Positions 11,234 through 12,440 of a stretch of DNA of 64,000 nt are shown one piece after another. The position numbers and the translations under genes are program-made. Within the stretch, counting starts at the first letter, position 1, and the number at the start of each line of letters is the position of its first letter. The DNA is from Nannocystis pusilla (GTDB lineage: Bacteria; Myxococcota_A; Polyangia; Nannocystales; Nannocystaceae), in assembly GCF_020073745.1 (NCBI RefSeq), contig NZ_JAIRAU010000002.1:81694-145693 (forward strand). Direction: 5' to 3'. A model generated the notes under the pieces. It was not told the DNA's origin, ran no database searches, and saw only the letters and a list, made by a program, of their open reading frames with translations.

Positions 11234-12082
11234 ATGCAGCGGGCCGCCTCTCACATTCGACACGATCGCGCCGCCGCGGCGCTGGCGGTGCTGCTCGGCT
11301 GCCACGCGGCCGAGTACGAGGGGATCGACGGGATGGCGCCGGAGCGGGCCTCGGAGTGCGTGGAGCCGGGCGCGCGGTGGTTCAGCTTCACGGGCGCGCC
11401 GCAGACGTTCGTGGTGCCGGAGTGCGTGACGACGCTGGCGGTCGAGCTGTGGGGCGCGCAGGGCGGGCCGAGCCGCTGCGGCACCGACGACGAGCACGGC
11501 CTGCCCGACGTGCAGGAGGACGGCGGACACGGGGGCCGATTGCGAGCTGACCTTTCGGTCAGCCCCGGCGATGTCGTGCTGGTGCACGTCGGCGGCCGCG
11601 GAGGCCTCGACGGCGCGCCCGGCTGGAACGGCGGCGGCAGCGGCGGGAGGTGGGGCGGCGGCGGCGGCGGAGCGTCGGACGTGCGCCTGAACGGCGCGAG
11701 CCTGGTCGATCGCGCGCTGGTGGTCGGCGGCGGGGGCGGCGGCGTGTGCGGCTATCCGGATCACGGAGCGGGCGGCCACGGCGGGGGGCTGGCGGGCGAG
11801 GACGGGATCGTCGGTGACGTGAACTGGCGCGCAGGCGGCGGCGGACAGCCGCACGCGGGTGGAGCGGGCGGCGCGGCGCCCGGTCAGTCCGGCGTGTTCG
11901 GGCTCGGCGGCGGGGCGGCCGGCTACCACGTGGCCGGAGGCGGCGGCGGCTGGTACGGCGGTGGCGGGGCCTTCGGCGCCGGCGGAGGCGGTGGTTCGTC
12001 GTACGTGGGTCCCGCCGGCAACGATGCGGAGCTCGAGGTCGGCGCGCGCGACGGCGATGGCGTGGTGGTGATCAGCTGGTGA
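11234..12082 (+). CDS. glycine-rich secreted protein (Gly_rich/ALK GlyR-like polyglycine domain)
   Basis: GGAGGAGG RBS. Signal/lipobox LLGC. FSFTGAPQTFVVPECVTTLAVELWGAQGG start motif, then long GGGGG runs with GGGGWYGGGG. Confidence 0.7.
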   Translation: MQRAASHIRHDRAAAALAVLLGCHAAEYEGIDGMAPERASECVEPGARWFSFTGAPQTFVVPECVTTLAVELWGAQGGPSRCGTDDEHGLPDVQEDGGHGGRLRADLSVSPGDVVLVHVGGRGGLDGAPGWNGGGSGGRWGGGGGGASDVRLNGASLVDRALVVGGGGGGVCGYPDHGAGGHGGGLAGEDGIVGDVNWRAGGGGQPHAGGAGGAAPGQSGVFGLGGGAAGYHVAGGGGGWYGGGGAFGAGGGGGSSYVGPAGNDAELEVGARDGDGVVVISW

Positions 12083-12440
12083 GCGCGGCGACCCGCGAGC
12101 GGACGGCGCGAGGCGGAGCTGGAGATCGCGGCGCGCGCGACGGCGATGGCGTGGTGGTGATCAGCTGGTGAGCGGGGCGGACGGCGCGAGGCGGAGCTGG
12201 AGCTCGCGGCGGGCGGATGGTGTGGATGGGGAGCCGCGGGTGAGCGCGTCGATGGGGGTGCAGATCTGCCAGTGAGCGCGGCGTGATCCTGGTTCGCGCG
12301 TGAGTGCGTCGAGATCTGCCAGTGAGCGCGGCGTGGTTCAGGGTGGGAACGCGTCGAGATGCGGGCGGACGGCGGCGAGGCGCGGATGGAGACAGGTGAC
12401 GTGCACCGGCGCGGTGCAGCTGCGGGGACGGCGAGGACGC
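12043..12440. repeat. tandem duplication of the last ~40 nt of the glycine-rich gene plus downstream sequence (about 90-bp unit, twice), followed by degenerate about 45-bp repeats
   Basis: GCGCGCGCGACGGCGATGGCGTGGTGGTGATCAGCTGGTGAGCG at 12043 and again at 12131. GACGGCGCGAGGCGGAGCTGGAG twice. ATCTGCCAGTGAGCGCGGCGTG twice. Confidence 0.8.

Follow-up and report, generated by a model that had tools for sequence, protein, structure and literature searches.

How does the 3' end of a gene come to be repeated in the spacer behind it, and this more than once within a single genome segment? The question is raised by a stretch of 64,000 nucleotides (hereafter the window; GC content 72.8%) from a draft assembly labelled Nannocystis pusilla, for which a preliminary description had reported recent duplications of gene ends behind a glycine-rich gene (locus 1), a gene for a homologue of the major vault protein (MVP; locus 2) and a ParA-like/TPR gene (locus 3), taking all three as instances of one kind of event. 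We propose that loci 1 and 2, together with a fourth case at the end of a VWA gene, are probably locus-specific short tandem arrays (units of 30-140 nt) located in spacers, the first unit of which happens to take in the last part of the preceding gene, stop codon included. Locus 3 appears to have another history.

Repeated gene ends exist at all three flagged loci, far above chance, as established by alignments and by a test in which the last 50 nt plus 10 nt of each gene (n=37) were aligned to its own 690-nt downstream region, the downstream regions of other genes providing the null. Against a null score of 9.4 ± 2.2, the glycine-rich gene reached 48, and the MVP and VWA genes 22 each. For comparison we used the orthologous loci of other Nannocystis genomes, which were found via the relatives' proteins, exact-protein look-ups of the window's glycine-rich, MVP, P0121 and P0016 proteins having remained unmatched. 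The closest other genomes are those of N. radixulma and Nannocystis sp. SCPEA4 (∼95% DNA identity across the region); in ordinary genes, the identity is ∼80% for N. punicea, N. exedens, N. bainbridge, strain RBIL2 and N. pusilla Na p29. A literature search on tandem repeats or stop-spanning duplications in Nannocystis, itself partly ineffective, returned nothing relevant.

Tandem arrays at the ends of the glycine-rich and VWA genes

The repeat behind the glycine-rich gene is a five-unit array of the order A-B-C-D-D, in which the last ∼60 nt of the gene belong to unit A and in which A, B and C are spaced by 87 and 78 nt. The gene end had been described as repeated exactly once more. The exact repeat is there, with 46 nt identical between 12040-12085 and 12129-12174 (0 such matches expected in shuffles) and a gapped similarity extending over 12022-12137 versus 12109-12215 (85%, E=8e-25), but it is not a single copy, as the core around the stop codon occurs five times (12066, 12155, 12227, 12259 and 12309). 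The array reads A-C-D-D-D in SCPEA4 and A-C-D-D-D-D in N. radixulma, the number of D units thus being 2 in the window, 3 in SCPEA4 and 4 in N. radixulma, and the spacer from the stop codon to a conserved anchor measures 371, 479 and 666 nt, respectively. The D units resemble the gene end GTGCAGATCTACTGGTGA of N. punicea and N. exedens, two species that are without an array at this site.

Comparison of the orthologous loci, which the preliminary description had proposed as a check, showed that the relatives lack unit B (loci L081 and L084), and this unit is, from the alignments, the only recent event at locus 1. Its 5' part of ∼25 nt is C-like, with CTGGAG and a 2-nt insertion in common with C, and its 3' part of ∼50 nt, which holds the 46 exact nucleotides, is A-like. 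Being composed of a C-type 5' part and an A-type 3' part, B is what slippage or unequal exchange involving A and C would be expected to yield. It also differs from its neighbours by a point change and by an 11-nt deletion after the stop codon, the latter being another, minor case of slippage. In the spacer that separates A from B there are neither local inverted repeats nor a hairpin; this spacer does not fold better than shuffled sequences (z=+0.5), and a promoter/terminator scan predicted no terminator-like site at locus 1. Downstream of the paralogous glycine-rich gene that follows, there are no repeats, and a conserved intrinsic terminator is found there instead. This terminator (13749-13776; a GC hairpin with a T tract) is nearly the same in four species and contrasts with the repeat-filled spacer of the first gene.

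A fourth gene-end repeat, missed in the preliminary description, lies at the VWA gene (7223-10732), where a 101-nt tandem repeat begins with the final 31 nt of the gene. Each unit of this array has an ATGTCGCAAGGGACA motif, and arrays with copies of the VWA gene end are found in the window, N. radixulma, SCPEA4 and N. punicea.

A separate observation concerns the palindrome GGACATGTCC / ATGTC-N-GGACAT, whose core GGACATGT has 28 copies in the window where 0.9 would be expected. The copies are often clustered in spacers (e.g., 10770-11085, 12500, 17183-17246, 24629-24650, 35237, 38472-38558 and 52021), and in other Nannocystis species several copies precede the same genes; the palindrome is probably a genus-wide promoter or operator element. 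An exact 24-nt repeat with GGACATGTCC occurs at 24626-24649 and 52018-52041, 27 kb apart, and an exact 22-nt repeat with the same motif at 38488-38509 and 38537-38558, at a spacing of 49 nt upstream of the TPR gene.

An ancient pair of copies at the MVP gene

At locus 2, the gene terminus does recur 120 bp further on, as had been stated with coordinates that were 2 nt off: the 19-mer GACAGCGAAGTCGTGAGGC is exact at 33290-33308 and 33410-33428, and 24 of 25 positions match between 33284-33308 and 33404-33428. The GC-rich hairpin reported between the copies is likewise present, with its 11-bp stem; other species have different hairpins at this position, and the promoter/terminator scan predicted no terminator-like site here either. 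The duplication is not recent. In an alignment of the spacer between the MVP gene and the following radical-SAM gene, the core of the downstream copy, GTCGTGAGGC, is unchanged in seven of seven Nannocystis genomes, all of which have both copies and none of which has an empty (single-copy) site; this invariance marks the copy as ancient. Four species have a third, middle copy (GGGGCAGCGATGTCGCGGTGA). The invariant element upstream of the radical-SAM gene reads GTCGTGAGGCTTCG-CCTCGC, and its conservation suggests that the downstream copy may serve a function upstream of that gene.

The near identity of the two copies in the window appears to be younger than the copies themselves. In the window and in N. 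radixulma, the alignment shows that the MVP gene end has gained 3 nt and changed at several positions, while the downstream copy has changed at two, and all of these changes made the copies more alike. We infer that conversion or unequal exchange took place at least once between short repeats already in place, and brought the copies to 24/25 identity in this clade. In outgroups outside the cultured Nannocystis, both the MVP tails and the genes downstream are different, so that the origin of the copies can be dated no further. Relatives of the MVP homologue, 55-97% identical to it, occur in 132 stretches of genome that span Myxococcota, Bacteroidota, Sericytochromatia, Chloroflexota and candidate phyla; in Nannocystis, the gene is followed by the radical-SAM/SPASM gene.

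A putative rearrangement scar at the TPR gene

The diverged gene-end copy noted at locus 3 is real as a sequence, with two blocks of 85% similarity (40159-40212 versus 40731-40784, and 40312-40390 versus 40812-40890), but it does not derive from the resident gene. Over all aligned columns, the fragment is 72% identical to the resident TPR gene and to N. radixulma, versus 86% to the N. punicea orthologue and 80-82% to those of four other species, and its BLAST blocks reach 89-93%, with 37/37 positions matching in N. bainbridge. The resident gene, for its part, is 93% identical to that of N. radixulma and 75-81% to those of other species. The fragment adjoins a strain-specific insertion of 6.7 kb that is not at this site in six other Nannocystis species, and a GFA-family gene convergent to the TPR gene, intact in all six other Nannocystis relatives, is reduced to a remnant here. 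Part of the former upstream region of the GFA gene recurs as an inverted copy at 35035-35131.

Locus 3 is thus best described, on these comparisons, as a putative rearrangement scar at the edge of an insertion rather than as a copy of the resident gene, and differs in kind from loci 1 and 2, so that the three loci can no longer be grouped as one type of event. The fragment is what remains, at the insertion's border, of a TPR allele nearer to the N. punicea type, and the insertion was accompanied by deletion of the GFA gene. Most likely, DNA from another Nannocystis lineage would have been imported by one homologous crossover on the right and one illegitimate joining on the left. Of the claim that the duplications are recent, then, only unit B of locus 1 is left, the downstream copy being invariant at locus 2 and the fragment not resident-derived at locus 3.

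The five tandem paralogues of the insertion form two subfamilies with 42-47% identity within each; they have no Pfam match, and their best homologues are metagenomic and at most 46% identical. Nearby, an element of ∼100-150 nt is present in two inverted copies that are 85% identical (34869-35155 and 40614-40711), with internal palindromes (34899-35001 and 35078-35119) and a TGTCCC..GGGACA motif. It is also found at two sites in N. radixulma (L001 14258-14359 and 20347-20539); candidates for its nature are a small repeat element and a shared regulatory module.

Table 1. Positions in the window of the gene-end repeats, the genes they belong to and the rearranged region at the TPR gene.
Feature	Position	Strand	Details
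VWA array	10701-10998	+	Units 10701-10801 and 10802-10890 (89%); partial third copy 10931-10998
Glycine-rich gene, ALK_LTK_GRD domain	11234-12082	+	Pfam PF12810, E=1.3e-20; 95% identical to N. radixulma orthologue
Unit A: last 60 nt of glycine-rich gene including TGA stop, plus 27 nt downstream	12023-12109	+	Alignment; orthologous unit in N. radixulma and SCPEA4
Unit B, this strain only	12110-12187	+	Alignment; missing from N. radixulma and SCPEA4
Unit C, older degenerate gene-end copy	12188-12258	+	7-nt deletion in common with N. radixulma C unit
Two D-type units (GCAGATCTGCCAGTGAGCGCGGCG)	12259-12358	+	24 nt exact, 12262-12285 versus 12312-12335
Paralogous glycine-rich gene	12448-13671	+	3' end 82% identical to units A and B
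Major-vault-protein homologue	30759-33305	+	Pfam MVP_shoulder, Vault_3
Gene-end copy at MVP stop codon	33284-33308	+	Self-comparison, exact-match search
GC-rich hairpin between copies, 11-bp stem, no T tract	33316-33341	+	z=-2.0
Downstream copy	33404-33428	+	∼75-95 nt upstream of radical-SAM gene start
ParA-like/TPR gene, resident allele	38686-40422	+	Confirmed by Pfam; last 256 nt 92% identical to N. radixulma
GFA-family gene 3' remnant	40449-40497	-	∼404 nt of gene deleted here
Former upstream region of GFA gene	40498-40715	.	Lower GC; contains TGTCCCAAGGGACA
TPR-gene 3'-end fragment, foreign or ancestral type	40710-40907	+	72-nt internal deletion; N. punicea stop position kept
Strain-specific 6.7-kb insertion	40716-47442	-	Five paralogous genes; synteny with all six relatives resumes at 47443
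Second GFA 3'-end remnant inside insertion	42207-42242	-	92% identical to 40444-40479

Recurrence in Nannocystis

That gene 3' ends are duplicated recurrently in this lineage, as had been proposed, is borne out by independent events in three other genomes. The TPR gene of N. exedens has a stop-spanning duplication of 80 nt at 92.5% identity with a period of 93, that of N. pusilla Na p29 one of 31/31 exact positions with a period of 32, and the M16 peptidase gene of N. punicea has three copies at 66/65-nt spacing over an ATGA stop/start overlap, which is undisturbed in each of the other six genomes. At this triplicated junction of two M16 peptidase genes (L002 2736-2895), the original frame of the downstream gene hits a TGA in the third copy, its start having moved or the gene being damaged. 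A very recent intergenic event was also seen in N. exedens (L087 8050-8294), where a 123-nt tandem duplication with 100% identity lies in a spacer beside GGACATGTCC motifs.

Across 238 kb of Nannocystis sequence, we counted nine stop-spanning events and no real start-spanning one, the sole apparent case being an artefact of a start call. Reduced to independent events, this is ∼6 versus 0 (binomial p=0.03). An initial per-gene count gave stop-spanning repeats in 9/131 genes versus 2/751 (p=1e-6), but this sample was biased to the flagged window, and the bias was removed by dropping the events shared with the window and adding four unselected loci. The firmer result is the density of non-coding short direct repeats, which is about 5-fold higher in Nannocystis (6.9-8.3 per 100 kb) than in 736 kb of other high-GC loci (1.5 per 100 kb) and is better supported than the weak per-gene excess of stop-spanning cases.

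Several points weigh against the interpretation in terms of spacer arrays that take in gene ends, and against its extension to a 3'-biased process. Once ascertainment bias is removed, the per-gene comparison falls to 3/149 versus 2/751 (p=0.03), or p=0.11 when set against high-GC loci only; the four unselected Nannocystis loci (87 kb, 55 annotated genes) hold five intergenic arrays, none of them stop-spanning. The asymmetry between 3' and 5' ends depends on few independent events and on gene-start calls that are approximate. In these counts orthologous events were scored once per species, and many of the comparison loci are metagenome-assembled genomes from short reads, which may collapse repeats. 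The invariance of the downstream copy at locus 2 would imply a function that lies outside a model of repeat dynamics, and no donor was found for the island at locus 3, whose genes have no homologue above 46% identity.

Origin of the arrays

The molecular mechanism (slippage versus unequal recombination) and the selective filter behind the 3' bias are what we infer from these observations. The arrays would arise via slipped-strand mispairing or microhomology-mediated template switching and, once two copies are present, would change by unequal exchange and gene conversion. With a left breakpoint inside the open reading frame (ORF) and a right breakpoint past the stop codon, the ORF would stay intact; such a duplication would therefore be neutral and persist. 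Duplications within genes or over gene starts and promoters may mostly be purged by selection, and this filter would account for only 3' ends appearing. Slippage at terminator hairpins had been among the candidates put forward earlier: slippage or unequal exchange is retained here as the best mechanism, whereas terminator hairpins are not required, a hairpin being present at locus 2 only and a terminator-like site at neither locus 1 nor locus 2.

The bias need not come from selection if gene 3' ends are mechanistic hot spots, where breaks or stalled forks would result from transcription termination, R-loops or G-rich non-template DNA behind the stop codons, and repair would duplicate the gene ends. 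In line with this, the array spacers 10733-11233 and 12083-12447 have the strongest positive coding-strand GC skew among the window's long spacers (+0.27 and +0.35, genes averaging 0.00), and several intergenic arrays at other Nannocystis loci start 15-90 nt from a stop codon. Repeats amplify the composition of their unit, however, so that the skew is not independent evidence; locus 1 has neither hairpin nor terminator-like site, and arrays also occur in promoter-proximal spacers (38488-38558; L083 5648-5894). A hot spot is possible, but it is not needed for the data and we regard it as unlikely. A selected function of the arrays, as coupled mini-ORFs similar to those of mycobacterial interspersed repetitive units (MIRUs), as regulatory or stabilising repeats of the 3' untranslated region or as arrays of protein-binding sites, seems to us quite improbable, even though every stop is set in GTGA or ATGA, a motif of the over-represented GGACATGT type is present in each VWA unit and the downstream copy at locus 2 is invariant. 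Three of the periods (89, 101 and 32) equal -1 mod 3, so that an ORF beginning at the GTG across the first stop is in frame with the gene when it reaches the second copy; yet this relation has a 1-in-3 chance per array and fails at periods 120, 93, 66 and 78, and GTGA needs just a last codon ending in G, which is common at 73% GC. Moreover, copy number and sequence vary freely among ∼95%-identical genomes, and the arrays share no consensus and have no Rfam match (an Rfam scan and a tRNA scan of the whole window gave 0 matches).

The preliminary description had also considered the insertion of a hairpin-bearing element with a long target-site duplication, and the strong GC hairpin between the locus-2 copies might point to such a small mobile element, of the type of miniature inverted-repeat transposable elements (MITEs) or repetitive extragenic palindromic (REP) sequences. 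This explanation is very hard to uphold, given that both locus-2 copies are already in all seven genomes, that the insert at locus 1 is a hairpin-free hybrid of the neighbouring units, that the segments between the repeats are not found again in the window or in the fetched loci, and that no transposase, integrase or reverse transcriptase was found among the 40 window proteins scanned for domains. A MITE or insertion-sequence insertion with target-site duplication was accordingly rejected, both the search for an empty site in relatives and that for terminal inverted repeats and further copies (in the 64-kb window and the fetched loci) having gone against it. The least credible alternative is an origin of the repeats in faulty assembly: the source is a draft genome and unit B is present in this assembly only, but the expansion of an exact repeat would not yield the hybrid 5' end, the 11-nt deletion and the point change by which B differs from A and C, and homologous arrays with differing copy numbers are present in four independent assemblies, including a complete chromosome.

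We consider it doubtful that short tandem duplications over stop codons form a lineage-enriched process in Nannocystis, as opposed to a random subset of spacer repeats. Were this so, the long spacers of these 11-13-Mb genomes would be built from gene ends, and conversion would return sequence to the genes and remodel their C-termini, as may be the case for the MVP tail in this clade and for the end of the glycine-rich protein (VVVISW, versus VQIYW of the D-unit/N. punicea type). Overlapping ATGA gene pairs would be pulled apart, as at the M16 peptidase junction of N. punicea. If the pattern proved to be genome-wide, it would offer one concrete route of spacer growth in very large GC-rich myxobacterial genomes, with C-termini and operon junctions altered without mobile elements. 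Of more immediate use, arrays that differ between ∼95%-identical genomes are possible strain-typing markers, and annotators should expect pseudo-copies of gene ends downstream of Nannocystis genes; beyond typing and annotation, these are ordinary repeat dynamics.

Comparison with known repeat systems

Three known systems resemble the gene-end repeats in part. As in diversity-generating retroelements, the gene is closely followed by a near-copy of its 3' coding end, but the window encodes no reverse transcriptase, the copies extend over the stop codon into non-coding DNA, and the mismatches at locus 3 are not adenine-specific (G21, C17, A13 and T7 by base of the downstream fragment; G23, C19, T13 and A3 by base of the resident gene), which led us to reject this candidate. 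Integrative elements with their attachment sites (attL/attR) would likewise leave a second gene 3' end downstream of an intact gene, and at locus 3 this second end adjoins the strain-specific island. They were rejected as well: the window has no integrase, the copies at loci 1 and 2 are only 50-95 nt apart, and both copies at locus 3 lie on one side of the island instead of flanking it. The MIRUs of mycobacteria are tandem intercistronic units of 40-100 bp, whose small ORFs overlap the flanking stop and start codons. Similarly, the Nannocystis tandem units of 30-100 nt between co-directional genes overlap the upstream stop codon, and some have periods of -1 mod 3 with GTGA. MIRUs are, however, a dispersed family with a consensus, whereas each Nannocystis array comes from its own local gene end without similarity to the others, and since self-comparison of the window revealed no consensus shared between arrays, dispersed repeats of the MIRU type were set aside.

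The closest match is with bacterial variable-number tandem repeats (VNTRs) or minisatellites, in which units of tens of nucleotides stand head to tail, vary in copy number between close relatives, form hybrid units and become homogenised, without dedicated enzymes nearby. All of these traits are seen here: the copies are arranged head to tail, in A-B-C as in the VWA array; their number varies among close relatives, with two to four D units and with B in the window only; B is a hybrid, and the locus-2 copies have converged in the window and N. radixulma. Two differences from VNTRs are that the first unit in Nannocystis regularly includes the last codons and the stop of the upstream gene, and that the density of arrays appears higher than in the other high-GC loci sampled. 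The arrays are a further example of this known VNTR/minisatellite-type feature.

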